DNA of 64,000 bases from assembly GCA_963759345.1 (NCBI GenBank), contig CAVWYW010000017.1, forward strand, positions 314,507 to 378,506, written 5' to 3'. The notes beneath the pieces are model-generated. The model was not told where the DNA came from and made no database searches. It saw only the letters and a program-made list of their open reading frames with translations. Position numbers and translations under genes: made by a program. Origin of the DNA: an uncultured Alphaproteobacteria bacterium (GTDB lineage Bacteria > Pseudomonadota > Alphaproteobacteria > Rhizobiales > Xanthobacteraceae). Shown in pieces: positions 15,150 through 50,318 of the stretch. Numbering within the stretch: position 1 is the stretch's first letter; each line of letters starts with the position of its first letter.

Positions 15150-15506
15150 GGCTTGATCCTTCTCAAATCGCCAAATCTTTTAGTAGCGACCGTGTGTGAA
15201 GCATGGGGCAAGCCGCGTCGGAAGTCGTGAAGGTGTCGGTGCTGCCAATGCCGCGGTCATCGCGATCGGTGTTGTCACGTTTTGTCGGCTTGGAAATTGA
15301 CACAACAGTCCGTGGGGGGCTTGTGAAATGCTTGCTAAAAATCAAAAGCACTCGCGAAAAGCTCACCATCGACCGAGTGTGAAGTCTTTGACAAGTAATT
15401 CACGAGCGGACGCTCGTCGGTAGTGTTACGATCTTGCCGCCGGTGCCGAAGAGAGTTGTCTCGTCGACCTTTCCGGGAACCCACGACCTTTCGGATTGCG
15501 ATCGCC

Positions 15507-17624
15507 ATGCTGCAATTGCGCCTGTTCGGTCGTTTTGATCTTCGCCGCGATGATGGCTCTGCCGTGTCACTTCCGGGCCGTCAATCTATGGCCGTTCTTG
15601 CCTGCCTTGGGCTGGCCGAAGACTTCACCTTGGCTCGCGAACGGCTTGCCGAGCTGATCTGGGCCGGCCGTGGTACCGAACAGGCCAACGGGAGTCTTCG
15701 ACAGGAACTGGTGCGTCTGCGTCGCACAATCGGCGAGGAGGTTTTGCCAGCGGCAGGTACAACCTCGCAGCCCGTTCGTCTCGATGCAACCGACATTGAC
15801 ATTGATGTCGTGCGCTTTCGCGGCGCTGCCGCTGCTCCAGGCGGTGGGGCGGAGGCGATCGCACTATATCGCGGCCCGCTGTTGGAGGATTTTGCAGTAC
15901 GTCCACGTGATCCATTTGGCGATTGGATCGCTGTACATCGCCAAAAGCTGCGGGATATCGCAAGGGCGCTGATGTTGCGCATGCTGCGTGGGGGTGAAGG
16001 CAGTCCCGCTTTGGCTCAACGACTGGTGGCTCTCGACCCATTGTGCGAGGAAGCCTATCGGTTTCTCATCCGTTACCATGTCGGGGAGGGAGACCTGCCC
16101 GGCGCGCAAAAGTGGTTTGATAGCTGCGCAGCGTCGTTTGGTGCAGCCGGAGTCGAAACCTCCTTGGAAATCCGCTCCCTGATGAAGGACGCTAAGGCCG
16201 AGATCTCCCGGAGTTCGGCGCACTCATTCCAAATCATGCATCCCGCTGCGGCGGCCGGGACTACGCAGTGGTTGCGCGCGTCGCTCGCTTCCCCGGGCAG
16301 GCTGCATCGGCCACCCGCGCGGAAGCTACCGGAAATAACCGACCGCCCGTCGATCGTTGTTCTGCCGTTCGACGATTTGACCGAGTCCTCGGAATTTCGT
16401 GACCACCTGCTTGGCGATATCATCACTGAGGCGACAACGGCAGCGCTCGCACGGGTAAACGGACTATTTGTCACCGCGCGGCATTCAGCGATGGCCTACC
16501 GTAATGCGGCGATCGATGTGCGCTTGATCGCTGCAGAGCTTGGCGTGCGCTATCTCATCGAAGGCAGCGTCGTCCGTTCCGGCCGGTCACTACGTTGCAA
16601 CGTGCGGCTCATCGACGGGCACACCGGATTGCATATCTGGGCCGACCAAGTCGAAAGCGCTGCAGACGACGAGCTGGCGCTGCGCGATCGGATCGTGCAC
16701 GAAACACTTGGACGACTGATGCCGCGGCTTTTGGTCGCCGAAATGGTACGCGCCGGCGCAGGGCAGAAAGCACCGCGCGACGCCTACACCTCGCTAATGG
16801 GCGCGCGCGCCGAGTTGCTGCGCGAGCAGCCATTCGACGACGCGCTGCGTCGGGCCATGACGCGCGTCGAACTGGCACTCACCCTGGATCCTGAGAACGC
16901 CGAGGCGCATGCCATGGCCGCCTATTTGCTCATGCATCAGACTTGGTCGCGGTTCTCGGCCCAGCCATTGCGCGACCGATGGCGCGCGCGTCGGTTCATG
17001 CGAGGCGCCCTCCGCCGGGACTCCGAAAACGCAACAGTACTAACAATGTGCTCAGAGGTCGCGCTGATTTGCGCCTCCGATATCGATCAAGCGCTCGCGC
17101 TTTCCGAAGCCGCGGTGCGCCACGACGCTAATGACGCGCAGGCGCTAGCGCTGCTCGGCCATATCCGACGCATGGCGGGCGACGACCCTCGTGGCTCCCT
17201 GGCGTTAATCGAGCACGCCCAGCGCCTGAGCCCGCGTGATCCGCGTACCTTCCTTTGGCTGCTTTACGGCGTTTGGTGCCGCTGGAAGCTTGGTGAGTAC
17301 ACAGAAATGGAGGCCATGGCGCGCCGGTCAATTGGGCTTTATGCCAACATCCCGTGGAACTGGTTAGGCCTCGCTGCTGCCCTGGCGCTGCAGAATAAGC
17401 ACGCCGAAGCCGCCGAGGCCTTGAGCTCTACTCGTGCAATGATGCCGACTTACACGCCCTCGCGGTTCCACTGGGGAGCGCAATATGTTTATGGCCGTCG
17501 CTTTCGCGATCACGTGAAGGACGATTACCGGCGGCTTCGCGATGCGTTGAATGCAAGCCTTGCCCAGAGCACTGGGACCGTCTTTCCGGCGGACGCTGCT
17601 CGCACTCACCGACGGCGTGAATGA
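15507..17624 (+). CDS. SARP/BTAD-type transcriptional activator with TolB-N-like and TPR region
   Basis: MLQLRLFGRFDLRR..G..V.LPGRQSMAVLA.L...., ..ALYRGPLLEDF.., ..DPLCEEAYR.LIRYH...GD...A...F (BTAD). Then PSIVVLPFDDL..EF..LGDIITEA.T.ALAR..GLFV.AR.S...Y.....DV..IA.ELGVRYL.EGSV, followed by TPR-like helices. Confidence 0.75.
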   Translation: MLQLRLFGRFDLRRDDGSAVSLPGRQSMAVLACLGLAEDFTLARERLAELIWAGRGTEQANGSLRQELVRLRRTIGEEVLPAAGTTSQPVRLDATDIDIDVVRFRGAAAAPGGGAEAIALYRGPLLEDFAVRPRDPFGDWIAVHRQKLRDIARALMLRMLRGGEGSPALAQRLVALDPLCEEAYRFLIRYHVGEGDLPGAQKWFDSCAASFGAAGVETSLEIRSLMKDAKAEISRSSAHSFQIMHPAAAAGTTQWLRASLASPGRLHRPPARKLPEITDRPSIVVLPFDDLTESSEFRDHLLGDIITEATTAALARVNGLFVTARHSAMAYRNAAIDVRLIAAELGVRYLIEGSVVRSGRSLRCNVRLIDGHTGLHIWADQVESAADDELALRDRIVHETLGRLMPRLLVAEMVRAGAGQKAPRDAYTSLMGARAELLREQPFDDALRRAMTRVELALTLDPENAEAHAMAAYLLMHQTWSRFSAQPLRDRWRARRFMRGALRRDSENATVLTMCSEVALICASDIDQALALSEAAVRHDANDAQALALLGHIRRMAGDDPRGSLALIEHAQRLSPRDPRTFLWLLYGVWCRWKLGEYTEMEAMARRSIGLYANIPWNWLGLAAALALQNKHAEAAEALSSTRAMMPTYTPSRFHWGAQYVYGRRFRDHVKDDYRRLRDALNASLAQSTGTVFPADAARTHRRRE

Positions 17625-17741
17625 ATGAGACCGTCGACTTCAGGTATAGGCCCATCGCGTCGGATGCTGCGGCGCAATCGATGTGGTGCAAATAGTCAAG
17701 GCTATTAGCGCCGTTAATGGCGCAATAACGGGAAGGTACAG

Positions 17742-18863
17742 ATGTCGGTAATATCCACCATTGTAGACGTCTTAGCCGGCCAAAGCTCCAGCGGTGATGT
17801 TCTTATCGCGCCGGGCGGCTTCGTAGTAGCGAGCGGCGGGTCGATCGCTAATAACGTCGTCGCTGATTTCGGCTTTACGGAAATCGCGATTGGCGGCACG
17901 GCGAGTGCAACAACGCTGCAACAGGGTGACCAGCTCGATGATGGCACGGCGGTCAAGACCTTGATCGCGTCCGATGGCGTAGAGCAGGTCGGTGCCGGCG
18001 GCGTGACCTTTGGAGCGGAGGTGTTTACCAGCGGGCTCGAAAAAGTCTTCACATCCGGTCTTGCCATCGCGATGACCGTCAATGGGGGCTCGGCAGTGAT
18101 CTTTAGCGGCGGTACCGCGTCTGGAACCGATGTCATCAATGGCGGCGTGCTGACCGTCTCCAGCGGCGGCACGGACAAAGGTGCAACGGTGGGCACCGGC
18201 GGCACGCTAAACGTATCTTCGGGCGGCACCGACAGCGGCACGTCAGTAACCGGCAGCACGATGAACGTGTATTCCGGCGGCACGGCCGACCATACCTCGG
18301 TCGGCACCGGTGGCACGATGAACGTGTCTTCAGGAGGCGCCGCCAGCGGCGTTTCAGTCGGCAGCGGCGGCACGCTCACCGTCTCTTCCGGCGGCGTCGT
18401 CAGCGCGCTGACGATTAATGATTCGAATGACCCGGTTGTCACCGCGGTAGCCAATGTGCTGTCCGGCGGTACCGTCGATGGCAATACCAAGATCGACGGC
18501 GGAGCATTGGTTTTGGACGCCGGCGCCGTCTTTGAAGCCCACTCCACGCTGACCATCGCCAAAACCGGTGAGCTAGTGCTGGAACAGGACTCGTTCAAAG
18601 GCACCATCCACGACTTCAGCGGACAGGATTTCATGGACCTGACCAAGATCAGATTCATCGGCCAGGGGATGGCGGAAACGACCGCGACTTTTACGCAAAC
18701 CAATGGGGCCGGCGGCCTGCTTCAAATCGCACAAGGAAACCACGTCGCCGACCTTCACCTGACCGGCACTTACACGACGGCTAACTTCGCTTTGCAGAGC
18801 GATGGTGCGCACGGGACGACGGTTGTTTTTGTTCCCGATGCTGCGCTGGCGGGTCACGGCTAG
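17742..18863 (+). CDS. AIDA-repeat beta-helix protein without signal peptide or translocator barrel
   Basis: Five consecutive 19-aa repeats (TVSSGGTDKGATVGTGG / TLNVSSGGTDSGTSVTGS / TMNVYSGGTADHTSVGTGG ..). The C-terminal module is ..GTIHDFSGQDFMDLTKIRF....LLQIAQGNHVADLHLTGTYTTANFALQSDG.GTTV. Confidence 0.75.
   Translation: MSVISTIVDVLAGQSSSGDVLIAPGGFVVASGGSIANNVVADFGFTEIAIGGTASATTLQQGDQLDDGTAVKTLIASDGVEQVGAGGVTFGAEVFTSGLEKVFTSGLAIAMTVNGGSAVIFSGGTASGTDVINGGVLTVSSGGTDKGATVGTGGTLNVSSGGTDSGTSVTGSTMNVYSGGTADHTSVGTGGTMNVSSGGAASGVSVGSGGTLTVSSGGVVSALTINDSNDPVVTAVANVLSGGTVDGNTKIDGGALVLDAGAVFEAHSTLTIAKTGELVLEQDSFKGTIHDFSGQDFMDLTKIRFIGQGMAETTATFTQTNGAGGLLQIAQGNHVADLHLTGTYTTANFALQSDGAHGTTVVFVPDAALAGHG
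18120..18420 (+). repeat. In-frame 57-bp tandem repeats encoding the AIDA-type 19-aa units
   Basis: The periodicity is read directly from the translation of 17742-18863. It also generates the long spurious antisense ORF 17714-18703. Confidence 0.7.
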
Positions 18864-19120
18864 GAGAAATCGCTGTTGTTTTAGGATCGTTACCCGTCCG
18901 CGCCCGGCGCAGCAGCACGTCGCGATTCGGACGTCTCACGCGCGATGGGCGATCTCGCCTCATGGCCCATCGCGACGTGTGGCCCTGCAATGGTTGTCGG
19001 TCGCTTTCGGGGGACAGAGCGGACGTCGCAAGTCGTTCGTCCGGACACTGTTCATGAGTTCACGGCCTAGCGCGCCCTTTGCAGGCCGACACAAACGCGA
19101 TTTAGTCCACAGGACGCAGC

Positions 19121-19777
19121 TCAAAATTCGACGTCGAGCTCTTCAAGCTCGTCGGGCTCGACTTTGGCCGCCGCGATCCATTCCTGCATCAGCGGCATTG
19201 CCATGATGGTGCGGCAGTATTGCGCCGACACCGGATCTAGCGCGACGTCGTACGTGACAAAGCGGGTGCAAACCGGAGCGTACATGGCGTCGGCGGCACA
19301 GGGCTTTTTGCCGAACAGGTATGGTCCCTGGTACTTCTCCAGGCATTCGCGCCAGATCGCGGTGATGCGCTCGATATCGCCGCGGGCGCCGGCCCAGGAT
19401 TTGAAGCCCGGAAAATGCGCTTTGAGATTCATCGGCAGCGCCGAGCGCAGATTGGCGAAGCCGGAATGCATCTCACCGCAGATCGCGCGGCAATGCGCGC
19501 GTTGCGCTTGATCGGCCGGCAACAGGCCCGCTTCGGGCTTGATCTCATTCAGATATTCGACGATCGCCAGCGTGTCCCAAACCTTCAGCCCGTCGTGGAT
19601 CAGGCAAGGCACCAGGAAGGACGGCGACAGCAACAGCAATTCCGCGCGCGTCGAGGGGTCATCGGTGCCGACATGCTGTTCATCGAAATCGAGGCCGGAC
19701 ATTTTGCAGAGCAACCAGCCGCGCAGCGACCATGAGCCATAATTCTTGCTTGCAATTGTCAGGGTGGCCTTAGACAT
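19121..19777 (-). CDS. Glutathione S-transferase family protein
   Basis: Intact 218-aa ORF with ..NYGSWSLRGWLL....GL.F........, VPCLIHDGLKVWDTLAIVEYL (GST N-terminal fold) and a helical C-terminal domain. Confidence 0.85.
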   Translation of the reverse strand: MSKATLTIASKNYGSWSLRGWLLCKMSGLDFDEQHVGTDDPSTRAELLLLSPSFLVPCLIHDGLKVWDTLAIVEYLNEIKPEAGLLPADQAQRAHCRAICGEMHSGFANLRSALPMNLKAHFPGFKSWAGARGDIERITAIWRECLEKYQGPYLFGKKPCAADAMYAPVCTRFVTYDVALDPVSAQYCRTIMAMPLMQEWIAAAKVEPDELEELDVEF

Positions 19778-20002
19778 TGAGCGCTCGTGATGGCGGGAAG
19801 GTTGCTGTTTATCAATCGGTTACGGCCAATTTCAGGGATTCGGCGGTGCTTGCTTCCGCGCACCGATTCCCGCGTTCCGCTCCCTTAATGCAGGATGTTC
19901 ACAATTTTGTCGCAGCGCAACAAGAAATGCACTAGTTTCCCCGCGCTTGGGGGGTCGCAGGTGTGCTGTCGCCAGACAGCCTACGGCGCCCGTGGGTAAC
20001 GG

Positions 20003-21214
20003 ATGCTGTATTTCGCCTATCAGACCCACGCCGACATTATAACGCCGATGAAAGCGTGGGCGACCATGGCGCTTGCCGCCGGCCGCCAGCCGCTCGTCGC
20101 CGAAAATTCCGCCATCCGCAATCTGACCGCGGCTTACGAGTTGGTCTCGCGGATGGGGCTGACCCATACCCGCCCGCCCTTTGCCATCCGCTCGATCAAC
20201 GTCGGCAACCGCGAGGTCGAAGTCCGCGAGGAGGCCGCGCACAAGACGCCGTTCGGCACGCTGCTTCACTTCAAGAAGGATGTTGCGACGACGCAGCCGC
20301 GCGTGCTGCTGGTAGCGCCGCTGTCCGGGCACTTCGCCACGCTGCTGCGGGCGACGGTGCGTACGATGCTTCCGGATCATGACGTTTTCATCACCGACTG
20401 GCACAATGCGCGCGACATCCCGCTGATCGCGGGCCGCTTCGGCGTCGATGAATATGTCGACCATCTGATCAAGTTTCTCGAAGTGATGGGGCCCGGCTCT
20501 CACGTCCTTGCGGTGTGCCAGCCCTGCGTCGCGGTACTCTCCGCCGTTGCGGCGATGGCGCAGCAGAGCAATCCGGCGCAGCCGCGTTCGATGACGCTGA
20601 TGGCCGGACCGATCGACTGCCGCGTCAATCCGACCAAAGTGAACGATCTTGCCAACAAGCGCGACATGGCCTGGTTCGAGCGGATGCTCACCGCATCGGT
20701 GCCGATCCGTTATCCTGGCGCGTTCCGCCGGGTCTATCCGGGTTTCGTTCAGCTCACCGCCTTCATGAGCATGAACATCGAGCGGCACGTGAAAGCGCAC
20801 AAGGAGCTTTACGAGCATCTCGCCAACGGCGAAACCGAAAAGGCGGCGACCACCAAAGCCTTCTACGACGAATATTTCGCCGTGCTCGATCTCACCGCCG
20901 AGTTTTATCTGGAGACGGTGCGGCTGATCTTCCAGGAATACGCGCTGCCGCTCGGCAAGCTGGAATGGCACGGCACCCGCATCGATCCGAGCGCGATCCG
21001 CCGCACCATGCTGCTCACGGTCGAAGGCGAGCGCGACGACATCTGCGCCGTCGGCCAGACCGTCGCGGCGCACGACCTGTGCAGCAAGCTCCGCCCATAT
21101 CTGAAGCGCCACCACATGCAGGCCGGCGTCGGCCATTACGGCGTGTTCTCCGGCAAGCGCTGGGAGAACCAGGTTTATCCGATCGTCAAGAACGTGATCC
21201 TGTCGAGCGATTGA
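20003..21214 (+). CDS. phaZ: Intracellular polyhydroxyalkanoate (PHB) depolymerase
   Basis: Intact 403-aa ORF. MLYFAYQTHADI..P......., ..LLHFKKD...QPRVLLVAPLSGHFATLLR.TV..MLPDHDV.ITDW.NARD.., ..VCQP.V..L.A.A.M., ..EGE.DDI...GQT.AAHDLC. Confidence 0.85.
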   Translation: MLYFAYQTHADIITPMKAWATMALAAGRQPLVAENSAIRNLTAAYELVSRMGLTHTRPPFAIRSINVGNREVEVREEAAHKTPFGTLLHFKKDVATTQPRVLLVAPLSGHFATLLRATVRTMLPDHDVFITDWHNARDIPLIAGRFGVDEYVDHLIKFLEVMGPGSHVLAVCQPCVAVLSAVAAMAQQSNPAQPRSMTLMAGPIDCRVNPTKVNDLANKRDMAWFERMLTASVPIRYPGAFRRVYPGFVQLTAFMSMNIERHVKAHKELYEHLANGETEKAATTKAFYDEYFAVLDLTAEFYLETVRLIFQEYALPLGKLEWHGTRIDPSAIRRTMLLTVEGERDDICAVGQTVAAHDLCSKLRPYLKRHHMQAGVGHYGVFSGKRWENQVYPIVKNVILSSD

Positions 21215-21234
21215 GCGGAAGTGGCTAACCGGCG

Positions 21235-21465
21235 AAAGGCCCCGCAGGCCAACTGATCGGCCGAGTTTTGGCCAATCGCTATCGTGACGGCCTAGAGCGG
21301 GCGGGATGGAGCGGCCATCACAGTTTCGTGTTCATTCCGCGCGATGGCGTTGCCTTCGCTAAGATGTGGTGGTGGTCACGCGTTCGCTCGACGGCGTCGC
21401 GCTGGAACTGACGATCGAGGCCTGGCGCAGGCCGCCGCGATGTCCCGAGGCCGCGAATGCGTGAG
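21235..21465 (+). pseudogene. Orphan 3' fragment paralogous to the tail of the Hint-domain gene (26340-26540)
   Basis: GQLIGRVLANRYRDGLERAGWSGHHSFVFIPRDGVAFAK / DVVVVTRSLDGVALELTIEAWRR aligns with GQILANCYREDLKQAGIGSGHHGFEFVLPAELLFAPKDIDVRRSVDGAALELTIDAWRAR. There is no upstream coding partner and one internal frame break. Confidence 0.6.
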
Positions 21466-21573
21466 CGCGGTGGCTTAGCGACGCATCGATGTTCGCCGCA
21501 CTGAGCGGACGAAGGGGATATCCGTTGTTGGCGTAGCGGTGACCCGCGAGGGTCGAAAGAGTTGGTGGGATAG

Positions 21574-24082
21574 GTGTCAGTGGCGGAAACAGCGGCTTCC
21601 GATCTCGGTAACGACCGCGTTGGAATGTTGACCGCGCTGCGCGACCAAGGCGCCGCACGCTTGCGCGCAAATTCTTTCGTCGAAGCGATCGAACTACTTG
21701 CCCGCGCCGTTTCGCTCGAGCCGAACGATCCAAAGGCACAACTCAGTCTCGGCGTCGCTTTGCAAAGCGCCGGTCGTCACGCCGATGCCGTAAGGGTCCT
21801 TGCGTCCGTGCAAAAGTTGCTGCCGGACGATCCAACAGCGTTCCTGCATGCTGCGTCGTCGCTGCTCGCTCTCGGAGACGCGGTCGGTGCGCTGCGTGCC
21901 GCAAGCGATGCGTGCCACCGCGACCCGAGGCTGCCGCAAGCGCATTATATGTACGGGCGGGCTTGGTTGGCTCAGAACGATCCCACGAAAGCCGAGCGTG
22001 CTTTTGCCGAAGCGCTTCGGCTCGCGCCGGGATCGGCCGACGCCTGGGTCAGTTATGGTATTGCCCGATACAACCAGGGCGCCACCGAAGACGCCAAGAC
22101 CGCGATGCGCCAGGCGCTCAAGTTCGCGCCGAACCATTCGACGGCGTCATCAAATCTCGCCGCCTTTATGCGGATCAGCGGCGAATCCGAAGCCGCCGTA
22201 CAATTGCTTCAGGCGACCATCACCAGAGATCCAAATAACACCGGAGCACGGCTTAACCTGGCGGCGGACTTTTTGCAGGACGAACGCGCCGGCGACGCGT
22301 TGGCGGTGCTTGACGGGGCGCCGCCGGCCAGCGGTGGTCTGCGCGCGGCGCGCCACTGGCATCTGCAGAAGTCGCTGGCGCTCCTGCAGCTTGGCCACGC
22401 AACGGAGGCAAAAGCAGAGCTTGATGCTCTCTCCGCCCTCGGCCCGATCCCGCCCGGTCTCGCGCCGCTGTGGCACTGGCGCCAGGTGCTGCTGGCGCAC
22501 GCCGACAACGACCTGCCGCGTGCGTGTGCGGCGGCCGAGCAGATGGAAGCGGCGCTCGAAACGATGGGGCCGGAGGCCGTTCTCGAACACCGTGTTATGG
22601 GGCACTACGACCTCGCCAAGTTCTGGTCGGGGCAAAATGCCCGCTCGCGTGCATTCGCGCATTGGCAAGCGGGCCACAAGCTCATCAAAAGGAGCCAACC
22701 ATTTTCGCGTGACGCGCACCGCTCTTTCGTCGACGCCAATATCGCCGCCTTCGATAAGGATCGCTTCGTCAACGGTCCGCGGGCGCAGAACGCCGATCCC
22801 GCGCCGGTCTTCATTGTCGGCATGCCGCGCTCGGGCACGACCTTGTGCGAACAAATTCTCGCCGCGCACGCGCAGGTTCTCGGAGCCGGCGAAAGGAATG
22901 CGCTTCCGACCGCGCTTTCACGCGCTGGGCGGTGGAGAAGATCAGGCCGGGTCGGTTCGCCGTATTGCCGCGCTCGGCGCCGGTGCGCTCGACGCTGCGG
23001 CATCGCAATATCTCGCCGAACTTCATGCGCTTGCGCCGGACAAGGCCCGTATCGTCGACAAGCTTCCCGGCAACTTCAACTATCTCGGCCTTGTCGGCCT
23101 GATGCTGCCGGGCGCGAAGATCATTTACTGCGCGCGCGACCCGCGCGACATCGGGCTGTCGATTTTCACCTTCCGCTTCCACGGCGCGCACGGCTACGCG
23201 CACGATCTTGCCAATCTCGGCTGGTATATCGGCGAGCACGACCGGCTGATGCAGCATTGGAAGACCGTGCTGCCGAATCCAATCCTCACCGTGAATTTGT
23301 CGGATTGGGTCGAGGATTTTGACGGTACGCTCGCTCGCGTTTTGGCGCATGCCGATCTGCCGCCCGATCCCAACTGTGCGCGCTTCTACGAAGGCGACAA
23401 CCGCGTGCGAACGGTCAGTTACGCACAAGTGCGCCAACCGGTTAACGCGCGCGGCATCGGCCGCTGGAAGGCCTATGCCGCAGAGCTTGCGCCGTTGATC
23501 GGCGAGCTCGAGAAGGCGGGATTGATCGCTCCCGACCAAACGAAGATTGCCGACCGGTCAGCAGGCTCGCCGGAGCTGAGCTTGTGGAAGCCGGCTGAGC
23601 CCGCCACTGCGCTCGGCTTGGCGGTCGAGTTTCTCATGAAGGAGCCGGTGTTCGCGAGATTGCCATTCGGCGACTGGTCGCAGGTGCTGATCGGGCAGAT
23701 CAATCGCGATCAGTTTTGTTTTGTCGTTGACGCACAGCGGCGCGTCCAGGGATTTCTCGGCTGGGCATACACGCAAGAACGTCTCGCCGAGCAATGGGTC
23801 GAGAGCCGCGCGTCGCTCACCGACGAGGATTGCCGGGAAGGCGATTGCGTCATTATCAACGCCTGGGCAGCCTCTTCGACGGCAGCGCATCGGCTGTTGA
23901 TCGATGAAGGGCTCAAGCTGTTCGGTCGAAAGCTCCGAATCTATGCCCGGCGATACAACATCCGCGGTCGGCCCCGGCCGCTACGGATCGGTGGCCATGA
24001 GGCGGCCGACAAATTTGCGGCGATGATGCGGGCGGTCGCCAACGTTCAGGATGAAAACGCGACGCGTCGTCAGGACGCCTAG
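21574..24082 (+). CDS. TPR-repeat sulfotransferase continuing without a stop into an HlyC/RtxC-like acyltransferase-type domain; one frame break near 22900
   Basis: TPR helices span 21.6-22.7 kb. Sulfotransferase motifs are PVFIVGMPRSGTTL and YCARDPRDIGLS..GRWKAY. The C-terminus reads LGLAVEFLMKEPVFARLPFGDW..FCFVVD..VQGFLGWAYTQERLAEQW..LTDEDCREGDCVIINAWAA. Confidence 0.65.
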
Positions 24083-24109
24083 GAAAAGCAAACAGGTCGG
24101 TGAGCAGTC

Positions 24110-26596
24110 ATGGGCAACGTCTACACGGTTACCACGACGTCGGATGTCGATCCGAGTCCCGGCAACGATCTGACGCTGAGCGAGGCGATCAATGACGCCA
24201 ACGCCAATCCCGGCTCGACCATTGATTTCTCACCATCGGTCTTCACGGCGGGAAACGACACCTACACGCTGACCGGCACGCTGCCGGAGATCACCGCCAA
24301 CGTCACCATCGACGGCACGACCACCGACGGTCAGGGCATCACGCTCGACGGCGGCGGCAAGTATCAAGGCCTCTACGTCTATTCGGGTACGGCCGTCATT
24401 GAAAACCTCACGCTCGACGACACGCCCGCCATCGGCCAAGCCGGAAGTAATGGTGCTGACGGCAACGCCGTCTTCACTCCTGGGGGTGGTGGTGTATTTG
24501 GCGCGGGTGGCGGTGGCGGCGGCGGTGCGGGCCTTGGCGGCGGCCTCCTGGTCGGGAGTCGAGCGTCGGTCACGTTGAGCAACGTCGCCTTCGCGGCGGA
24601 GTTGGCGACGGGCGGCCAAGGCGGCGCTGGCGGCAGCTACGATGTCACACACGATATGGGTAACAACCGCGGCGGGTCGGGCGGCGGTTTTGAGAGCGGC
24701 GCCGGCGGCCAAGGCGCCCAGACAAAGGGTGTCGGTGGCAGTGCCGGCGGTTTCGGTGCCGGGGGTGGCGGTGGCGCGGGGAGCGCCGGGACAGGTGGAG
24801 CCGGCGGCTTCGGCGGGGGTGGCGGTGGCGGCGGCGGGCTCTCGAAGCCTGGCGAGAACGGGGCCGGAGTTGGTGGTGCTGGTGGGTTCGGCGCTGGCGC
24901 CGGCCGCGGGATCGCAGGTCCCTTCAGTTTAAGCGGTGGCGGCGGTGGCGGCGGCCTTGGCGCCGGCGGCGACATTTTTGTCGAACAAGGCGGATCGCTG
25001 ACGATCGATGCCGCTTCGCTTGGCGCGGCGACGGTGAGTGGCGGCCTCCTCGGTTCTGATGGTGAGGGCAACACCGCCGGGACCGGCGGAGCCTACGGCA
25101 GCGGGCTCTTCATCCAGGGCGACCAGTCGGTGACCTTTGCACCGGCCGCGGACCAGACCGTTACCATCTCCGGCGTCGTTGCCGATCAGAGCGGGTCGGG
25201 CGGCACCGGCGTCAACGCCGGCACAGGATCGTTGATCATGGACGGTGCCGGCGCGCTGGTGCTCGCCGCCGACAACATGCCCGGCTCGTCGAGCGACCCC
25301 GACCACGGGGGTTTCACCGGCGGCATCACGATCGAAGCGGGGACGGTCGATCTGACGGCGGCGGGCGCGGCCGGCTCAGGTCCGATCACCTTCGATCCCG
25401 GCACGCTGGAATTTACGCCGGCGACAGCACCGACCAACGAGATCGACGGTTTCGGCGCCGGCGACAGCATCCAGATTGACGATTTTCGGGAGACGTCGGC
25501 GCCGACTTACGCAAACGGCATCCTGACGCTCACGGGAACGGATGAAAACGGAAATCCAATTTCGCCTTTTACCCTCGACATTCCGGGGCAGGCGCTCGGG
25601 AATTTCCAGGTCAATGTCGGTTCGACCGACACGGTGATCGACTACGCCGCCTGCTATTGCGCAGGCACGCTCATCCGCACGGCGTGCGGGGAACAAGCGA
25701 GTTGAGAAGCTTAAGATTGGCGATGAGGTGATGACCGCGTCCGGCGTGGCGCGGCCGATCAAATGGACGGGCGCAGAAGCTACCTTGGGCGCTTCGTGAT
25801 GGGACGGAAAGACATTCTCCCGGTCTGCATCAAAGCCAGCGCGCTCGACGACAACGTGCCCAAACGTGATCTGTGGATTTCGCCGAACCACGCCATGTTT
25901 GAGATCTGGACGGCGTGCTGATCGAGGCGAAAGACCTCGTCAACGGCGTCTCAGTCGTGCAGGTCGAGAGGTCGAGCAAGTCGAATACTTCCACATCGAG
26001 CTTGAGACCCACGACGTGATCGTCGCCGAGGGCGCGCTGTCGGAGACGTTCATCGACGACGACAGCCGCGGAATGTTCCACAACGCGCACGAATACCGCG
26101 TGCTCTACCCGGGGGCGGCGGCGGTCGCGCGCTTATTGCGCGCCGCGGCTTGACGATGGCTACGAAGTGGAGGCGATCCGGCGGCGCCTCGCGCGGCGCG
26201 CCGGATTGGTCTCGGAGGAGACCTCGACGTTGGCGGGCCAGCTGCGCGGTTTCATCGATCGGATCACGCCGCATGTCCTTGAAGGCTGGGCGCAGAACGT
26301 CGATCATCCGGAGGCGCCGGTTTGTTTGGACATCTTTGCCGGCTGACCGACTGATTGGTCAGATACTGGCCAATTGTTATCGAGAGGATCTCAAGCAAGC
26401 CGGCATCGGCAGCGGTCATCATGGCTTTGAGTTCGTACTGCCAGCGGAGCTTTTGTTCGCTCCCAAAGACATCGATGTGCGGCGCTCGGTCGACGGTGCG
26501 GCGCTGGAGCTGACAATCGACGCCTGGCGAGCGCGTGCGATCCGCCGCTTAGCCCGCCTCCTTTCCTTTGCGCCGCCGGTAAAGCGTGCCGGCTAG
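24110..26596 (+). pseudogene. Gly-rich CSLREA-type beta-helix protein with C-terminal Hint domain and about 150-aa tail; the last 0.9 kb has at least 6 frame breaks
   Basis: 24110-25705 is one open frame (YTVTTTSD..LSEAINDAN..IDF, poly-Gly tracts, beta-strand repeats). Then C.CAGTLIRT..VEKLKIGDEVMTASG.ARPIKW..LWISPNHAMF..VEYFHIELETHDVIVAEG (Hint). The tail ends ..LELTIDAWRARAIRR.. with a stop at 26594-26596. Confidence 0.65.
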
Positions 26597-26666
26597 CGGG
26601 ACAGGTCGCGTTGGGAGTAGGCTTGTTTCGCGCGTATCGTCTTTAGCGCGCGGACAGGAGGCGCAC

Positions 26667-27043
26667 ATGGTCACAAGCGTCAAACAAATGCTGGAAGCCG
26701 CCAACGCTGCGGTGCCGAAGATTACGCCGGCGCAGGCGAGGAGATGATCGCGAAAGGCGACACGCTCGTGGTCGACGTGCGCGACGCGCCCGAGGTGCAG
26801 GCGAGCGGCAAGGTGGCGGGCGCCGTCCATGTCTCCCGCGGCATGCTGGAGTTCCGCGCCGATCCGGATTTGCCCTCGCACGACAAGAATTTCAGCAAGG
26901 ACAAGACCGTCATTCTTTATTGCGGCTCGGGCGGGCGCGCCGCGCTCGCCGGCAAGATGCTCAAGGATTTGGGCTACGAGAAAGTTTACAATCTCGGCGG
27001 GTTCAAAGACTGGGCCGACTCGGGCGGCGCGGTGGAGAAGTAA
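26667..27043 (+). CDS. Rhodanese-like (sulfurtransferase) single-domain protein; one frame break near 26737
   Basis: MVTSVKQMLEAANAAVPKITPAQA / EMIAKGDTLVVDVRDAPE..G.V.GAVHVSRGMLEF..D....., VILYCGSGGRAALAGKMLKDLGY.KVYNLGGFKDW. Confidence 0.75.
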
Positions 27044-27080
27044 TCAAGCCGACGTTGCTAGGGACGCGGCTCCGCGGAGA

Positions 27081-29134
27081 TCACCGCATCGCGGCTGCGA
27101 TATTGCCGCCGTCGACGGTGGTGACGTCGGCCGTGGTCTTCAGCGCCAGCGCCTGATGCACAAACGCTTGCGCCACATCCTCCGCCGTCACTTCGCGGCC
27201 GAGCAGATTGCCGCTCATATAGTCTTTTTCACTTAAGCCTCGCGCCTTGGAGCGCGACGCGATCATTTCCTTTGTCAGCAGCCCGGAGCGGATGCGGTCG
27301 GCATTGACGGCGTTGGCGCGGATGCCGTCTGCGCCGTAATCGAGCGCGTATTGGCGCATCAGCGCCAGCAGCGCCGCTTTCGGGATCCCGTACGGGCCGA
27401 AATTCGGGCCGGGATTGACCGCCTGTTTGGAGACGTTGAAGAGGAGGCAGCCGCCGGTTTTCTGGGCCAGCATGATTTTGACCGCCGCCTGCGCGGCGCG
27501 CTGCTGGCCGTAAAAATTCAGCTCAAAGCTTTTGCGCAAAACTTCTTCGTCGACCTCGCCGATGCGGCCTTGCCAGGCCGCGCCGGCATTGGCGACCAAG
27601 ATATCGACGCCGCCGAAGGCCGCTGCTACGGCATCGAAGGCAGCGTGCACGGAAGCCGCGTCGGTCACGTCGCATTGCACCGGTAATGCGGTCGGACCGA
27701 TCGCCTCGGCCTTCTCGCGCGCCGCGGCGAGATTGAGGTCGAGCAGGGCGACTTCCGCGCCCGCCGCGGCGAACGCCTTCGCGGTCGCTGCGCCGATGGC
27801 GCCCGCGGCGCCGGTGACGACCGCAATCTGGCCGGCCAGCGGCGGCTCCTTGCGCGCGCCGAGCTTGGCTTGCTCCAGCGGCCAATATTCGACGTCAAAC
27901 ATGTCGGCCTCCGAGATCGACTCGAAGCGGCCGATGCTTTCCGCGCCGGTGACGACAGCGATCCATTCCTCGGCGATGTCGGCGGCGATGACCGCGTCGC
28001 GTTTGGAGCGGCCCAAACCAAAAAGACCGAGCCCCGGAACCAGGACAACGCGGGGCAGGGGATCGAGCTCGTGCTTGATCCCGCCGACACGATGGTTGTG
28101 ATGCGAAAAATAGTTGCGGTAGCGCTCGGCGAAATCGCCTGCCGCTTTGCGCGCCGCCGCGGCGAAATCATCCAGCTTGCCGGTCTGAGGCGCAGGCAAA
28201 ACCAGCGGCCAGTTCTTGGTGCGAATGGTGTGATCCGGCGTCACCACGCCCGCCTGGCTCAAGCGCGGCAAATCGTCGGCGTTGACGAATGCCTGAAGCG
28301 TTGTTGCCGGCGAAAATCCAACACCAGCCTTCGCCAGGCGCCTTCGATGTTTTCGTCTCTTTCACTGCACGCGCCGCGCACAATCGGCGCGACTTCGGCG
28401 AGTGAGGCGGCCTCGCGCCGCGCGGTGACGGCGGCGGATTTGCCGTGCCGGGCAATGAAATCTTCCGCCAGCGACACCATCTCGATCATGCGCTCATAGG
28501 CTTCGCGCGCGGTTTCGCCGAAGGTGACGATGCCGTGCTTGCTGAGAATGAGCCCGTCGCTTGGTTTGTTTCGCTCGAAAACCTCGATCGCGGCTTTGGC
28601 CAGGCCGAAACCGGGCATGAGGTAGGGCACGAACGCCAGCCGGCCGCGAAACACTTCCGCGCATTTTTCTTCGCCGCGCGGCTGATCGATCACGCTGAGC
28701 ACCGCCGTCGCATGGGTGTGATCGATGAATTTGTGCGGCAGGAACGCATGCAACATGATCTCGACGGACGGATTTGGCGCTGCCGGATCGATCAGGTTGG
28801 CGCGCTCAATGGCCACCAGCTCTTCGTCGGCGATGGCGTCGATCGCGCGCAGTTGGCGCAACGGCGCAAGCCGTACCGCGGGCAGCCCTTCAGGCTCGGT
28901 GGTTGCCATGTCGGCGCCGGAGGCTTTCACCCGCAAAACCTCGACATCCTCACCGAGCAGATCGCGGGCGCGGGTCTTCAGCGAGGTGTTGCCGCCGCCG
29001 TGGAGGACGAGCTTTGGATCGCGGCCGAGAAGCCGCGTGGTGTAGACCCGAAGCGCCAGGTCGCGCTCGACGCCCGCCCTGGCGCCGTGGGCGACGATCG
29101 CCTCGGCGTCACGGTCGACCCACGCGCTTTTCAT
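27081..29134 (-). CDS. Bifunctional class II aldolase / short-chain dehydrogenase; one frame break near 28318
   Basis: N-terminal half: ..LVLHGGGNTS.K......G....VL.VK.SG.DM.. (aldolase/adducin). It joins ..FVNADDLPRLSQAGVVTPDHTIRTKN to the SDR half with VVTGAAGAIG and ..YG..KAA.... Confidence 0.8.
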
Positions 29135-29152
29135 GGCGTGTCGAGAGTTGGA

Positions 29153-32092
29153 TCAACCGCCGGCGAAGCGCCGGGACCACCAGCCGCTGCGGCGCGGCTT
29201 GTCGGTGCTTTCGCTTTCGCCGACTTCGGTGATCACCGGTTGCGGAGGCGGCGACGATGCCGGCACTGGCGTCGGGCTGTGGCGCGTCCGCGCTCACAAT
29301 CGGTGCCGGCTCGCGAACGGTCGAGCGCCGGCGCGGCGGCTCCGGTTGGCTCGCCGGGGCCGAGGGCGTCGACTCAACGACGGCCGGCTCGCTGGAAGGT
29401 GCCGCTGCGGCGAATGGCGGCGCAGCATCAAGGTCGGCGACGGCCGTCGCTCAGTTCCGCTTCGGTCGGCGGCGCTCCGGTGAGCTCTTCAGGCGGCGTC
29501 GGCGGCGGCTCATGCGGCTCGTAAGTATCGTGCCCCTCCGCCAGAGGCGCAGCTTCGCCGATACGTTCCGGACGATTGCGCCGGCCGCCGCGACGGCCGC
29601 GGCGGCGCCGGCGCCGCTCGCCATCGCGCTGCGCCTCGTTGCGGTTGTCTGAGCCGTTTTCGCTGGCCTCTTCGGCGAGTTCGTCCGCCGACAACTCGCC
29701 AATTTCGTCTGCGGCCTGGTCGCCGGCCGTCTCTGCCATCTCTTCGTGATGGTGCGGCTGCGGGTGCGCGCCGCCACCATTGCGTCCGCGGCGTCGCCGC
29801 CGGCGCCGGCGGCGTCCGCCGCCTTCCGCATGCTCGGCGGAAACTTCCGCCGCTGATCCCTCAGCCTCAGTCTCGACCTCGGCGTCGGACTCTTCTTCTT
29901 CCAACACCGCCGCGTCTTCAAGATCGTCGTCCTCCTCGAGCGGGGCGGCGATTGCTTCGTTCCGTTCGGCCAGCGCTTTGGCCGCTTCCAGCGTGTGCAC
30001 CTGCTCACCGCGATCGATGGCGAACGCCAGCGGCGCCGCGATGGTCGGCATCCGCGCTGATGGTGATGGTAATGGCGAACCGCTCCTCCAGTGCCCGCAG
30101 GTGCGCGCGCTTCTGGTTGAGCACATAAAGCGCCACGTCGGGGCGGGTGCGGGCGATCAGATTGTGGGTCGCGCCCTTGATCAGCTGCTCTTCCAGCGCC
30201 CGCAGTACCTGCAGCGCCAGCGACGAAACCGAGCGCACGTGGCCGCTGCCGCCGCAGTACGGACACTTCTCCGTCGAGCTTTCGAGCACGCTGGCGCGGA
30301 TGCGCTGGCGCGACATTTCGAGCAGGCCGAAGTGCGAGATGCGGCCGACCTGGATGCGGGCGCGATCCTGCTTGAGGCATTCCTTCAGCCGGCGCTCGAC
30401 CGAGCGGTTGTTGCGCTTCTCGTCCATATCGATGAAGTCGATGACGATCAGCCCGGCGAGGTCGCGCAATCTGAGCTGGCGCGCGATCTCATCGGCGGCT
30501 TCCAGATTGGTCTTGAGCGCGGTGTCCTCGATATGATGCTCGCGCGTGGCGCGGCCGGAATTGACGTCGATCGCGACCAGCGCTTCGGCCTGGTTGAGCA
30601 CGATGTAACCGCCGGAGCGCAGCTGCACTACCGGCGAGAACATGCCGTCGAGCTGGTTCTCGACCCCGTAGCGCGAGAGCAGCGGCTGGGTGTCGGAATA
30701 CGGCTTCACGTTCTTTGCATGACTCGGCATGAGCATGCGCATGAAGTCTTTGGCCTCGTTATAGGCCTCCGGCCCGGCGACGATCACCTCGTCGATTTCC
30801 TTGGAGTACAGGTCGCGGATCGAGCGTTTGACCAGCGAACCCTCTTCGTAGACGAGCTTCGGCGCCGTCGATTTCAGGGTCAGGTCGCGCACGGTTTCCC
30901 AGAGCCGCAGCAGATATTCGAAATCGCGCTTGATCTCGGTCTTGGTGCGGCTGGCACCGGCGGTGCGCACAATCACGCCCATGCCTTCCGGAACTTCGAG
31001 CTCCTGCGCGATCTCCTTGAGCCTGGAACGATCCTCGCCGCTGGTGATTTTGCGGCTGATCCCGCCGCCGCGCGCGGTATTGGGCATCAGCACCGAATAG
31101 CGGCCGGCGAGCGACAGATAGGTCGTCAGCGCGGCGCCTTTGGTGCCGCGCTCCTCTTTGACCACCTGCACCAGCATGACCTGCCGGCGCTTGATGACTT
31201 CCTGGATTTTATACTGGCGGCGATAGCGCGGGGCGCGATCGGGGACTTCTTCGAGCGCATCGGCGCCGCCGACGGATTCAACGATCTCCTCGGCGGCTTC
31301 GTCGTCTTCGCCGTTCTCGCCGCCGTTGTGACGTTCGGAAACTTCCCGAACGTTATCCGCGTCGGCGGCCTCAGCCGCCATCGGCTCGGCGCTCTCAGTG
31401 GCGGGTTCGCCGGCCGTCTCGACCAGAGAGGGTGCGTCGTGCGCCTCGGCGTCGTCGCCGTGCGGTGGCAAATTTTCGGAAGCGACGGGAACCTCGGATT
31501 CGCCTTCGGCTTCGGCAGGCGAGGGGGCCTCGGCGTGATCTGCGGAGTGTTCGGCAGCAAGCTGTTGCTCGTGCTCTGCCTCGCCGACCAACTCGGTAAC
31601 GGTCGGGCCTTCGGTGTCCTCGGCCTCGACCGCGGCCTCATCTTCGATCGCGGTTTCTTCGGCTGGCCGCGCTTCAGCGTGTTCGTGGGCCTCGGCCGCC
31701 TCGCCGTGCACCACCTCATCCCCGCGCCGCGCTTGCGACGAGCGGCTGTTGCCGCGATGCCGGCGCGAGCGCCGATCCGATCGCTCGTCTTCTGCTGCGC
31801 GCTGGGCGCGGCCCTCTTCGTCGATCAGGGCCTGCCGGTCGGCGACCGGGATCTGATAGTAGTCCGGATGGATTTCGCTGAACGCCAGAAAGCCGTGGCG
31901 GTTGCCGCCGTAATCGACAAAGGCTGCTTGCAGCGACGGCTCAACGCGCGTCACTTTCGCCAGATAGATATTGCCTCTGAGCTGTTTACGCTGAGCAGAC
32001 TCGAAGTCGAATTCCTCGACGCGATTGCCGCGCAAGACGACTACCCGGGTCTCTTCCGGATGCGTCGCGTCGATAAGCATTTTGTTGGCCAT
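29153..32092 (-). CDS. rne: Ribonuclease E; at least 3 frame breaks in the acidic/Arg-rich C-terminal half
   Basis: MANKMLIDATHPEETRVVVLRGNRVEEFDFES..KQLRGNIYLAKVTRVEPSLQAAFVDYGGNRHGFL, ..GGGISRKI.., ..VAIDVNSG.., CPYCGGSGH... The tail ends ..KPRRSGWWSRRFAGG*. Frame changes fall near 30050, 29445 and 29235. Confidence 0.85.
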
Positions 32093-32769
32093 TGCAAATC
32101 TCGTGAAGGCGCTCGTGCCGCACGCTCCGCGCCGCAGCGGCGAGGGAGGACGGTGAACTGCCTGTTAGTCGGTGAAGGAAAAGGATCGGAAATCCCGAAC
32201 GCGCTGAACGGAACTCGGTCCGCCGGTTGCAGAGCGCGTGAACGCCGCTGCACCAATCTGATCGAACCTGTTGCGCCTCGAACATGAATTCCAAACCGTG
32301 ATGGACGGCGGCGCCTTAAGCCGCCGCGATTACTCTCCAGTGCCTACGGCATCGGCGACGCCGCATCGGCAATGCATTTCGTGCCGGCACGGCGCCGCGC
32401 GGTAAGTTCCGGCCGCCCTGCTCCTTTAAGGTATTTGGCTCGCTTGTTCGTCCATCTGCATCGGCCGGCGCGCTATCTGCGCCGGATCGGATCGAAAAGC
32501 GCCGTCCGCTTAAGCTTCCCCCAATCGGAAGCGATTGCGGCGGACATGCCGGATACCCTGACGGGACACAGCCTGAACACTTGACCGTCGGCAACCTCTT
32601 CTTAAGGCCGCGGCTACGGAATTGGCAAGCCGGATACGACATTTACCCAAAGCAGCCGAATTGCGGGTTTGCCCGCTGCCTTGTCCGCTTGCCTCTAATT
32701 TAGGTACTTAAGTTTCGATTAACCACGCCTGCCTAATGCAGTAAGAGGGGCGCGGAGGGCTGAAAACCG

Positions 32770-34011
32770 ATGGCTGTCCGAGCGGCGCGCTGGGCTTTCC
32801 TCGGTCTGATCTTCGCGACGGCCGCATTTGCCGGGGACCGGGCTATGGCCCCCTCGGCTGCTGGCGGCGATTCGCCCCCGGTTGCGACCGATGCGCGGCT
32901 CGGCGGCGACGAATCGCAGACCCGGTTTGTCATGGATGTCAGCCGCAAGATCGATCTCCACGCCTTTACGCTGGCCGATCCGTATCGCGTCGTAATCGAC
33001 ATTCCGCAGGTAACCTTTCAGCTTCCGCCGAAAACGGGCGACAGCGGCCGCGGCCTGATCAAGGCCTTTCGCTTCGGCCTGGTGATGCAGGGCGGGTCAC
33101 GGCTGGTGTTCGACCTCGCCAAGCCCGTGCGCGTCGAAAAAGCCTTCGTCGTCGATGCCGCTGCCGACGCGCCCGCGCGATTGGTGCTTGATCTTGTCGC
33201 AACCGATCGCGAGAGCTTCTTGCGCCGGATCGCTTTGGAAAACAGCCAGGTGCGCGCCGAGCCTCAACACGAGAGCAATCAGGCGGCCAAGGACACCGAT
33301 CTGCGTCCGCTTGTCGCGCTTGATCCCGGCCACGGCGGCATCGACACCGGCAGCAAAGCGGCGAGCGGCGAACTGGAAAAAGACATTGTCTTGAGTTTCG
33401 CCCAACACTTGCGTGACCGCATCGAGAAAACCGGCAAGTACCGCGTCCTCATGACGCGGACCGACGACACGTTCGTGCCGCTTGCCGAGCGGGTGCGCAT
33501 CGCGCGCAACGCCGGCGCTTCGCTGTTCGTTTCGATTCACGCCAATTCGCTGCCGCACGGGGAGGGTGATGCGCAAGGCGCGAGCATCTACACATTGTCG
33601 GATACTGCGACCGACTCGGAGGCCGCGCGTCTTGCCGAGAAGGAAAACCGTGCCGATGTTATCGCCGGTGTCGATCTCAAAGCCGAGCCGGATGACGTAG
33701 CCGGCATTCTGCTCGACCTTGCCGAGCGGGAGACCAAAGGTTTTTCGCTGCGATTTGCCCAGAAACTGGTCAGTGACCTGAAGACCGCTACCGTGCTGCA
33801 CAAGAAGCCGCTGAAGTCGGCCGGCTTTCGCGTGTTGCGTGCGCCCGACGTGCCCTCCGTGCTAGTAGAGCTCGGCTACGTCTCGAACCGCTCTGACCTG
33901 CACTCACTGCTTTCCGAAACCTGGCGCAATCGGACGTCGGAGACTATGGCGCAGGCCATCGACTCTTTCATGGCGGCTCGCACTACCAACACCCGCACCG
34001 GCGCGAATTAG
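32770..34011 (+). CDS. N-acetylmuramoyl-L-alanine amidase with N-terminal AMIN domain
   Basis: Signal peptide. RFVMDVSRKIDLHAFTLADPYRVVIDIP (AMIN). VALDPGHGGIDTG..SIHANS..GASIYTLS..ESN-type ..LVELGYVSN (Amidase_3). Confidence 0.85.
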   Translation: MAVRAARWAFLGLIFATAAFAGDRAMAPSAAGGDSPPVATDARLGGDESQTRFVMDVSRKIDLHAFTLADPYRVVIDIPQVTFQLPPKTGDSGRGLIKAFRFGLVMQGGSRLVFDLAKPVRVEKAFVVDAAADAPARLVLDLVATDRESFLRRIALENSQVRAEPQHESNQAAKDTDLRPLVALDPGHGGIDTGSKAASGELEKDIVLSFAQHLRDRIEKTGKYRVLMTRTDDTFVPLAERVRIARNAGASLFVSIHANSLPHGEGDAQGASIYTLSDTATDSEAARLAEKENRADVIAGVDLKAEPDDVAGILLDLAERETKGFSLRFAQKLVSDLKTATVLHKKPLKSAGFRVLRAPDVPSVLVELGYVSNRSDLHSLLSETWRNRTSETMAQAIDSFMAARTTNTRTGAN

Positions 34012-34187
34012 GGATCCCGACCAGTGCTAGCCCGAGCTATCGCCGGCCTCAGTTTGAACAAAAACCGGAGCGACGAAACGTGATGGCGATCGGGGCTAAC
34101 GGGGAATTGGGGCCGATAGCGCCCAACCGGATGTTCGCCGCGTGGCCGCTTTTGACCGCGCGCCGCGGCGAGGTAGGGCGCTGGTAA

Positions 34188-50153: not shown

Positions 50154-50174
50154 CGCGTTCCGGCGATATATGTT

Positions 50175-50318
50175 CCGTCACTCTGAGATGCGAGCCAACG
50201 GATCCGACCCGAAGTGGTCGGCCCGATGATAAACTCCGCGAGCCTCGAAGGGCGACGGCCCGGGCGCCTCGGCCGTTCATCCTTTGACGGCCGCCTTGCG
50301 GCCACCTCAGGATGACGG
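50175..50318. repeat. MITE-like repeat bounded by CCGTCAcTCTGAG / CTCAGgATGACGG
   Basis: It has the same termini as the 44-bp hairpin at 2601-2644, with about 100 bp of internal sequence. It lies between the tyrS start and the anmK remnant. Confidence 0.6.

Follow-up and report, generated by a model that had tools for sequence, protein, structure and literature searches.

What does a Hint domain do when it is placed between a glycine-rich, adhesin-type protein and a conserved C-terminal tail? The question is raised by a gene at 24110 to 26596 on the forward strand of a 64,000-nt stretch of contig CAVWYW010000017.1 (the window, in whose positions all coordinates are given) from an uncultured member of the Xanthobacteraceae. 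An initial annotation of this DNA considered the architecture polymorphic-toxin-like, with the Hint domain as the releaser of a C-terminal effector. We found that the domain order given there, a cargo followed by a Hint domain with a nucleophile Cys and then by a tail, was correct, and that the toxin architecture was not borne out. The best explanation of the results is that the locus encodes one protein of ~810 aa without a signal peptide, the front half of which is a Gly-rich, beta-strand-repeat cargo of the adhesin or passenger type. We propose, with a probability of about 0.6, that this protein and its relatives consist of a swappable cargo and a constant C-terminal autoprocessing cassette, and that the Hint domain would detach the cargo at the Ala514-Cys515 bond.

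Domain layout of the protein

As first annotated, the open reading frame (ORF) at 24110-25705 (+) is unbroken over 531 aa, and its quoted start, MGNVYTVTTTSDVDPSPGNDLTLSEAINDANANPGSTIDF, was found exactly. The cargo (residues 1-514; 24110..25651, +), delimited from the intact ORF and its composition, has an N-terminal 'LTLSEAINDAN' segment, a Gly-rich tract, and then a beta-strand-repeat region closing in VIDYAA. The Gly-rich tract covers residues ~115-330, with 22-56% Gly per 50-aa block and 30-56% across residues ~101-300; the poly-Gly tract is thus present as annotated, and by composition its length is nearer 200 aa than the ~250 aa first given. Cargo residues 1-513 gave no Pfam or NCBIfam match even when the threshold was relaxed to E<=10. 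The CSLREA-type start and the autotransporter beta-strand repeats of the initial annotation therefore hold as motif-level impressions only, although relatives begin 'M..ITV.N.NDSG.GSLRAAL' and carry PF12951. The absence of a Sec signal peptide and of a translocator barrel was confirmed, since the N-terminus is not of the hydrophobic Sec type and the Pfam scan returned no beta-barrel family. Pfam scans of the protein also gave no match to PF00353 (RTX).

When the three-frame translation was joined piece by piece, the frame-stitched protein had 828 aa. Its match to Hint_2 (PF13403) was close to full length and far beyond chance (E=7.3e-43; 146.9 bits against a cut-off of 28.4; profile positions 2-146 of 147), as expected from the Hint module described earlier, and homologues score ~150 bits. 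Hint_2 was the sole Pfam match of the stitched protein at E<=0.1, and the NCBIfam scan was empty. From the Pfam match and the frame pieces, the Hint domain comprises residues 515-650 (25652..26060, +). Its first residue and predicted nucleophile, Cys515 (codon 25652-25654, +), stands between VIDYAA and the motif that it opens, CYCAGTLI. Conservation in the family begins abruptly at this point, with Pro or Ala at position -1 followed by C-Y-C-x-G-T-L-I; Cys1 is invariant in 108/108 homologues, and DNA homology to a paralogue begins at 25650, the Cys1 codon. The scissile bond is therefore predicted to be Ala514-Cys515. In a profile search of the PDB, Cys515 aligned with Cys1 of the PI-SceI intein, but with an E-value of only 0.15. 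The Ser and His of block B ('SPNH') are encoded at 25880-25882 and 25889-25891, block F reads 'YFHIELETHDVIVAEG', and residues S94 and H97 (block B) and H131 of the family alignment are invariant. Thus, judged from the alignment, the residues predicted to form an N-terminal thioester (Cys1 and the block-B Ser/His) are present and invariant, and the protein appears to carry both marks of an autoprocessing-competent member of the Hint superfamily, the block A Cys/Ser and the block B Thr/Ser-x-x-His.

The family alignment further revealed a Phe-His-Asn (FHN) motif ('MFHNAHEY'; 26076..26084, +) 8-10 residues past the Hint_2 match. F159 and N161 never vary, at least 90% of members have H160, and distant relatives fused to glycosyltransferases retain the motif as F[HQ]N[AV]. 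It follows the block F 'AEG' at a distance of ~14 residues and precedes an Ala, with no +1 nucleophile, so that FHN-A resembles the block G of an intein or of a type-A bacterial intein-like (BIL) domain that lacks the +1 nucleophile. The motif is possibly a block G that has been displaced, which would make it a candidate site of C-terminal cleavage.

Behind the Hint domain lies a conserved tail of ~165 aa (26061..26552, +), which profile comparison, AlphaFold2 (AF2) and Foldseek resolved into a helical linker, an immunoglobulin (Ig)-like beta-sandwich (~26242-26510) and a short C-terminal stretch. AF2 predicted a confident beta-sandwich over tail residues 65-165 (predicted local distance difference test, pLDDT, >90), with low-confidence helices before it and a helix after it, and the model of Hint domain plus tail shows the same sandwich. 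The tail had no sequence match in Pfam, NCBIfam or the PDB, and PDB searches with the profiles of the tail and of Hint plus tail gave marginal matches only (block A of PI-SceI, E=0.15; BIL structure 2LWY, E=0.55). Foldseek searches of the PDB with the tail returned generic Ig-like matches only, the best being antibody-type domains at E~0.02. A weak likeness to the C-domain of fluorinase (5'-fluoro-5'-deoxyadenosine synthase) at tail-profile positions 100-128 ('GxxLANxYRxDLExAGxGxGxH', E=0.07) is probably due to chance.

A tail had been annotated before, and its presence stands. Its end at 26596 is probably ~44 nt too far: a frame hop near 26530 gives the ending '...ERVRSAA' in frame 0 with the stop at 26550-26552, and this stop is preferred because '...RVRSAA' fits the Ala-Ala C-termini of the family, so that the true gene end is probably 26552. 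Ala is the last residue in 81/120 family members (68%) compared with 15% of neighbouring proteins, and endings in AA, VA, RA or SA occur in 62% of the family and in 7% of 648 neighbouring proteins. This C-terminal Ala signature may be a degron or an export signal.

A profile built from 27 tails was searched against a library of 1.84 billion proteins and matched 9854 representatives at E<=1e-3 and 984 at E<=1e-30. Tail-profile positions ~64-148 form an independent module of ~80 aa, for which no Pfam family was found. The sandwich module occurs in 9-15 tandem copies in two proteins (P0121 and P0122), both of which end in a Por_Secre_tail sorting domain of the type IX secretion system (T9SS). Four more distant relatives (P0164, P0170, P0228 and P0241) join an AIDA cargo, Hint_2, the tail, a second sandwich module and a GT4 glycosyltransferase in one polypeptide. 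Short matches that appeared to consist of the tail only were N-terminally truncated gene calls starting inside the Hint domain, not alleles without it.

A constant cassette with variable cargos

A search with Hint domain and tail together returned 699 proteins, and the comparisons were drawn on the best 120. These are 60-78% identical to the query over ~90% of its length, and they differ in overall length and in N-terminal Pfam domains. In all-vs-all comparison, the cassette of Hint domain and tail has a median identity of 67% over ~291 aa. Among the 84 N-termini that reach 50 aa or more, only 11% of pairs show any similarity, and these N-termini fall into 32 unrelated clusters. Cargo types recognised by Pfam are PF12951, AIDA, RTX with Peptidase_M10_C, DUF4214 and DUF7507/DUF11, and many cargos have no Pfam family. 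The source databases label the relatives only as 'Hint domain-containing protein'; the name 'Hcp' given to one of them (P0105) by the Joint Genome Institute (JGI) was unconfirmed by Pfam, and no link to a type VI secretion system is inferred.

We then scanned 185,579 species genomes and found 196 relatives, from which 76 loci were kept; with L001, a JGI metagenome contig, the set has 77 loci. All 76 belong to Xanthobacteraceae, Bradyrhizobium, Rhodoplanes or unclassified alphaproteobacterial metagenome-assembled genomes (MAGs), and the closest genomes are long-contig MAGs of one soil survey. Among these loci, a single MAG carries 5-9 or more copies, often in tandem. The cassette is at the extreme C-terminus in 77/77 loci, in proteins of 296-2736 aa, and a hydrophobic N-terminus was found in 0/68 full-length members. 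An antisense ORF cluster seen in 9 loci lies inside the conserved cassette and was judged spurious.

Orthologues conserve both halves of the protein. Over cargo residues 291-512, identity is 87% with the L001 orthologue and 65-69% with L002_11 and L033_9, the latter being an intact full-length homologue of 860 aa with the same start as the window protein, and the Hint domain and tail are 78% identical to the orthologue. The L001 orthologue (L001 9195-11608) is itself split within its poly-Gly coding tract into ORFs of 269 aa and 535 aa, with Hint domain and tail intact; in that contig, the tract may be prone to indels or have been misassembled. From these alignments, the family appears best explained as one that retains the cassette and swaps the cargo; it is multi-copy in the genomes of Xanthobacteraceae and Bradyrhizobium soil bacteria.

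Proposed cleavage, its alternatives and the frame breaks

By analogy with intein, BIL and Hedgehog chemistry, Cys515, aided by the invariant block-B Ser and His, would turn the Ala514-Cys515 peptide bond into a thioester by an N-to-S acyl shift, and resolution of the thioester by water or another nucleophile would free the cargo from the cassette. Since the cassette is the only element common to all members, it is the likeliest carrier of a common function, and we conjecture that it would provide a shared targeting, export or quality-control function and be discarded afterwards, with the Ala-Ala end as a possible degron. The enzyme encoded next to the Hint gene, with tetratricopeptide repeats (TPR), a sulfotransferase domain and a HlyC-like acyltransferase domain, would probably modify the cargo first. 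Glycosylated adhesin systems such as AIDA-I/Aah, TibA/TibC and HMW1/HMW1C offer a parallel, which suggests that the cargos may be adhesin-type proteins modified in the cytoplasm before deployment.

Several observations weigh against this proposal. Neither cleavage nor export nor modification has been observed for any family member. No secretion genes, including those of ATP-binding cassette transporters and membrane fusion proteins (ABC/MFP), recur beside the 77 loci, so that the export role of the cassette is conjecture. The AF2 model has a pLDDT <50 over much of the Hint part and gives no check of the active-site geometry, and the invariant FHN motif could mean that the Hint domain also cleaves or splices at its own C-terminus. 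In addition, no part of the window has frame breaks as dense as those in Hint domain and tail (7-8 in 0.9 kb vs ~0.4/kb in the neighbours), and the window also holds a truncated relic of another family copy (21250-21428).

The FHN motif is the basis of one alternative, in which the domain would act like a type-A BIL, cutting at both Ala514-Cys515 and the Asn-Ala bond and either splicing the cargo to the tail by aminolysis or freeing three pieces; after splicing, the mature product would be the cargo with the Ig-like tail. An invariant F-H-N followed by Ala fits the described C-terminal His-Asn that lacks a +1 nucleophile and ligates via the freed amine (PMC4031507). However, the ~14 residues between the block F 'AEG' and the motif exceed the spacing in inteins, the motif lies outside the Pfam Hint_2 model and is placed without confidence by AF2, and no member with a cargo joined straight to the tail was found, the short matches being truncated gene calls; we therefore regard this alternative as rather improbable. 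A further version of the cassette idea, about equally doubtful, makes it a bacterial counterpart of the Hog module that would transfer cargos to a non-protein acceptor, or a self-removing tag for export or quality control. In this version, the tail would direct the signal-less adhesin-type cargos onto an envelope glycan or lipid after formation of the Cys515 thioester, the cargo or the acceptor would be prepared by the sulfo-, acyl- and glycosyltransferases that recur as neighbours or fusions, and the Ala-Ala end would mark the spent cassette for degradation.

In the polymorphic toxins, by comparison, the Hint domain would free the tail as a strain-variable effector, countered by a downstream immunity protein. 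Order and copy number give this some superficial appeal: Hint-then-tail resembles the pretoxin-HINT architectures described by Zhang et al. as cited in PMC3417536 (PF07591), in which multidomain, multi-copy proteins carry Hint near the C-terminus, and the tail fragment at 21250-21428 looks like an orphan. The polarity of variation is, however, reversed in the window family, in which Hint domain and tail are constant and the N-termini vary, and cleavage would release the N-terminal cargo rather than a C-terminal effector. The predicted structure of the tail is an Ig-like sandwich and not a toxin fold, and T9SS-sorted proteins repeat the same sandwich up to 15 times in tandem. The Hint domain belongs to Hint_2, not to PF07591, which the window protein did not match at E<=0.1 and which one relative matched at 19.5 bits, below the cut-off of 27.7. 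The family has no trafficking domain, and no immunity ORF fits between the Hint gene and the syntenic rhodanese gene, the gap being only ~71-115 nt. The initial annotation had itself named an invariant tail and a missing cleavage-site Cys as observations that would speak against it: orthologues do keep the tail, and the Cys is present and invariant, so that self-cleavage remains likely. On this comparison, a strain-variable toxin effector is very improbable and appears close to refuted.

Among described systems, B-type BIL domains come closest in chemistry and in occurring within variable proteins, and Hedgehog/Hog proteins come closest in layout. Both types A and B of BIL cleave at their own ends (PMC4031507, PMC7765530), and BIL domains go back to Amitai et al. 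2003 and Dassa et al. 2004 as summarised in these two papers. B-type domains are described there by intein motifs minus block G, by the lack of a +1 nucleophile and by their location in variable proteins, with end cleavage uncoupled from splicing. In the window family, likewise, a Hint-fold domain that starts with Cys shows intein blocks A, B and F, has neither a +1 nucleophile nor a canonical block G in its usual place, and is embedded in variable, non-conserved bacterial proteins; we infer that Pfam Hint_2 corresponds to the B-type BIL. Unlike the B-type domains, the family always adds the conserved ~165-aa tail, for which the accounts in PMC4031507 and PMC7765530 have no description, and it has an invariant His-Asn shortly downstream, a feature of type A. 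Hog proteins join diverse N-termini to a constant Hint domain and adduct recognition region (ARR) (PMC2362128). The resemblance to them is at the level of architecture only: diverse cargo, a constant Hint domain with Cys1, a constant C-terminal region, and multigene families differing by exchange of the N-terminus (warthog, groundhog and quahog in nematodes). The released part is the cargo in Hedgehog/Hog proteins and, as inferred, also here. On the other hand, the window protein has no signal peptide, its tail is an Ig-like sandwich and not a sterol recognition region (SRR), there is no evidence of adduct transfer in the family, and sequence similarity exists only at the level of the Hint superfamily.

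The cargos recall the glycosylated autotransporter and two-partner secretion (TPS) adhesins. AIDA, PF12951 and beta-helix-like Gly-rich types occur among them, and genes of TibC-like heptosyltransferases and GT41-type enzymes adjoin family loci. Unlike these adhesins, the window protein lacks a Sec signal, a translocator barrel and a TpsB partner, and the cassette stands in the place of the barrel; with no barrel family in Pfam and no hydrophobic N-terminus, it is not a classical autotransporter. Substrates of type I secretion systems (T1SS) share with the family the lack of an N-terminal signal and a conserved C-terminal element, where T1SS signals lie, and some family members carry RTX and Peptidase_M10_C before the Hint domain. 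The window protein differs from them in having no RTX repeats, and no ABC/MFP genes recur nearby. A review of RTX proteins had noted predicted members with Hedgehog/Intein homology (PMC3034196).

The Hint domain and tail can be read only across frame breaks. The pieces are 25649-25702 (frame 2), 25698-25766 (frame 0), 25769-25903 (frame 2), 25906-25968 (frame 1), 25968-26135 (frame 0), 26134-26343 (frame 1) and 26345-26593 (frame 2). The hops lie near 25700, 25768, 25905 and 25968 in the Hint domain and near 26133, 26344 and probably ~26530 in the tail, so that the six breaks or more of the initial annotation were recovered at about the listed positions, with a probable seventh. Compared with L001, frame-shifting indels in this part are at 25691, 25768, 25899, 25971, 26130/26134, 26348 and 26521/26530. 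The '+5' indel at 25899 lies in a loop where paralogues carry in-frame insertions, and at such a family hotspot it can be read as +6 -1. Elsewhere, the rhodanese gene (26741) and the fused aldolase/short-chain dehydrogenase (SDR) gene (27081-29134, -; 28298/28308) show one frameshift each relative to L001, and the RNase E gene (29150-32160, -) has three +1 insertions at 29272, 29446 and 30048; the amidase, PBP1A, polyhydroxybutyrate (PHB) depolymerase and glutathione S-transferase (GST) genes have no frameshifts. The gene tyrS (48900-50180, -) has ~5-6 frame hops in 1.25 kb, in line with the breaks noted in the initial annotation. Across 54 kb of coding sequence, a hidden Markov model of codon usage called ~45 frame switches on the same strand; these are clustered at several places, and some are true gene borders. 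The indel errors are thus window-wide but clustered.

We conclude that the breaks in Hint domain and tail are most likely single-base indel errors of consensus or assembly and not decay. The essential genes of TyrS and RNase E carry breaks of the same kind, which justifies the early caution that breaks alone do not prove decay, and a single-base indel can explain every break. The stitched Hint domain and tail differ at only 3/135 columns conserved in at least 90% of the family, compared with a family median of 4, so that there is no excess of substitutions as in a decayed gene; in the other 77 loci, Hint domain and tail form one tblastn segment. A genuine pseudogene, in which real frameshifts killed the Hint domain and tail and left a truncated 531-aa cargo protein, is unlikely but keeps an appreciable share of the probability because the local break density is the highest in the window, roughly 20x that of the immediate neighbours. 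Also in its favour are the decayed relic of a tail 3 kb upstream, the AIDA protein at 17721-18806, which lacks a cassette and so shows that cassette-less forms exist, and the split of the L001 orthologue in its own poly-Gly region.

For the locus itself, the main value of the results is as a correction: this is no toxin locus, and the frame breaks in it are probably sequencing artefacts. The window gene belongs to a known but uncharacterised kind, and the biological role of BIL (Hint_2) domains has been open since 2003. In this respect, the family is an unusually clean natural experiment, in which dozens of unrelated surface-type cargos share one constant cassette of Hint domain and Ig-like tail, have no recognisable export signal, and have protein-modifying enzymes as recurrent neighbours or fusions. 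Our literature searches found no description of the Ig-like tail with its Ala-Ala end, of the FHN motif or of the association with modifying enzymes, and nothing relevant on a Hint-domain exoproteome or on Hint_2/PF13403; these features are noteworthy, although their novelty is not established. If the cassette is a self-removing targeting or ligation module, it would represent a novel way by which abundant soil bacteria deploy their surface proteins, and possibly a useful tool for protein engineering.

Genes around the Hint gene

L001 is syntenic with the window over 19120-36469 at 84-93% nucleotide identity. The common order is GST, PHB depolymerase, TPR-sulfotransferase-HlyC, the Hint gene, rhodanese, aldolase/SDR, RNase E, amidase and PBP1A. 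The TPR-sulfotransferase-HlyC gene (21574..24082, +) was delimited from overlapping ORFs and its L001 orthologue. It ends 28 nt upstream of the Hint gene, with which it shares the strand and probably an operon. In the window it is read from ORFs 21574-23322 and 21800-24082, which overlap in different frames, with a +1 indel at 22915 relative to L001. The L001 orthologue is one ORF of 803 aa with Sulfotransfer_3 (1.6e-31), TPR repeats and HlyC (27.8 bits; cut-off 25).

Proteins with TPR and sulfotransferase domains are the commonest recurring neighbours of the family (12/77 loci) and are variously fused to a HlyC-like acyltransferase or GT41 domain. In the window, L001, L057, L065 and L073, their gene immediately precedes the Hint-family gene in the same orientation, separated from it by -4 to 28 nt. 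TibC-like heptosyltransferases, stand-alone sulfotransferases and DUF4915 proteins also recur, and GT41 enzymes are found adjacent as well. On the downstream side, the rhodanese gene (26586-27043, +) is syntenic in L001. Its reading frame begins at ~26668, ~71-115 nt after the stop of the Hint gene (26596 or 26552, respectively), and no ORF was found between the two.

The tail relic (21250..21428, +) corresponds to the last ~65 aa of another family member in two frames. It was detected by tblastn as two segments, 'QLIGRVLANRYRDGLERAGWSGHHSFVF' and 'VTRSLDGVALELTIEAWR', with a joint E=1e-8. It sits between the PHB depolymerase and TPR-sulfotransferase genes, in a spacer of 636 bp compared with 360 bp in L001, where no relic is at this position. 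This suggests a past rearrangement or the loss of a family member here.

Further upstream, an AIDA-repeat protein (17721-18806, +; Pfam AIDA 3.7e-8) has the cargo-like end '...FALQSDGAHGTTVVFVPDAALAGHG' at its stop codon and no Hint domain or tail; it is a cassette-less relative of the cargo type and adjoins an ORF of 703 aa that resembles a TPR regulator (15483-17591). The stretch of lower GC content at 13.5-19 kb departs from the L001 synteny, and a DDE_5 transposase fragment (12959-13513, +; 3.3e-63) lies at its edge.

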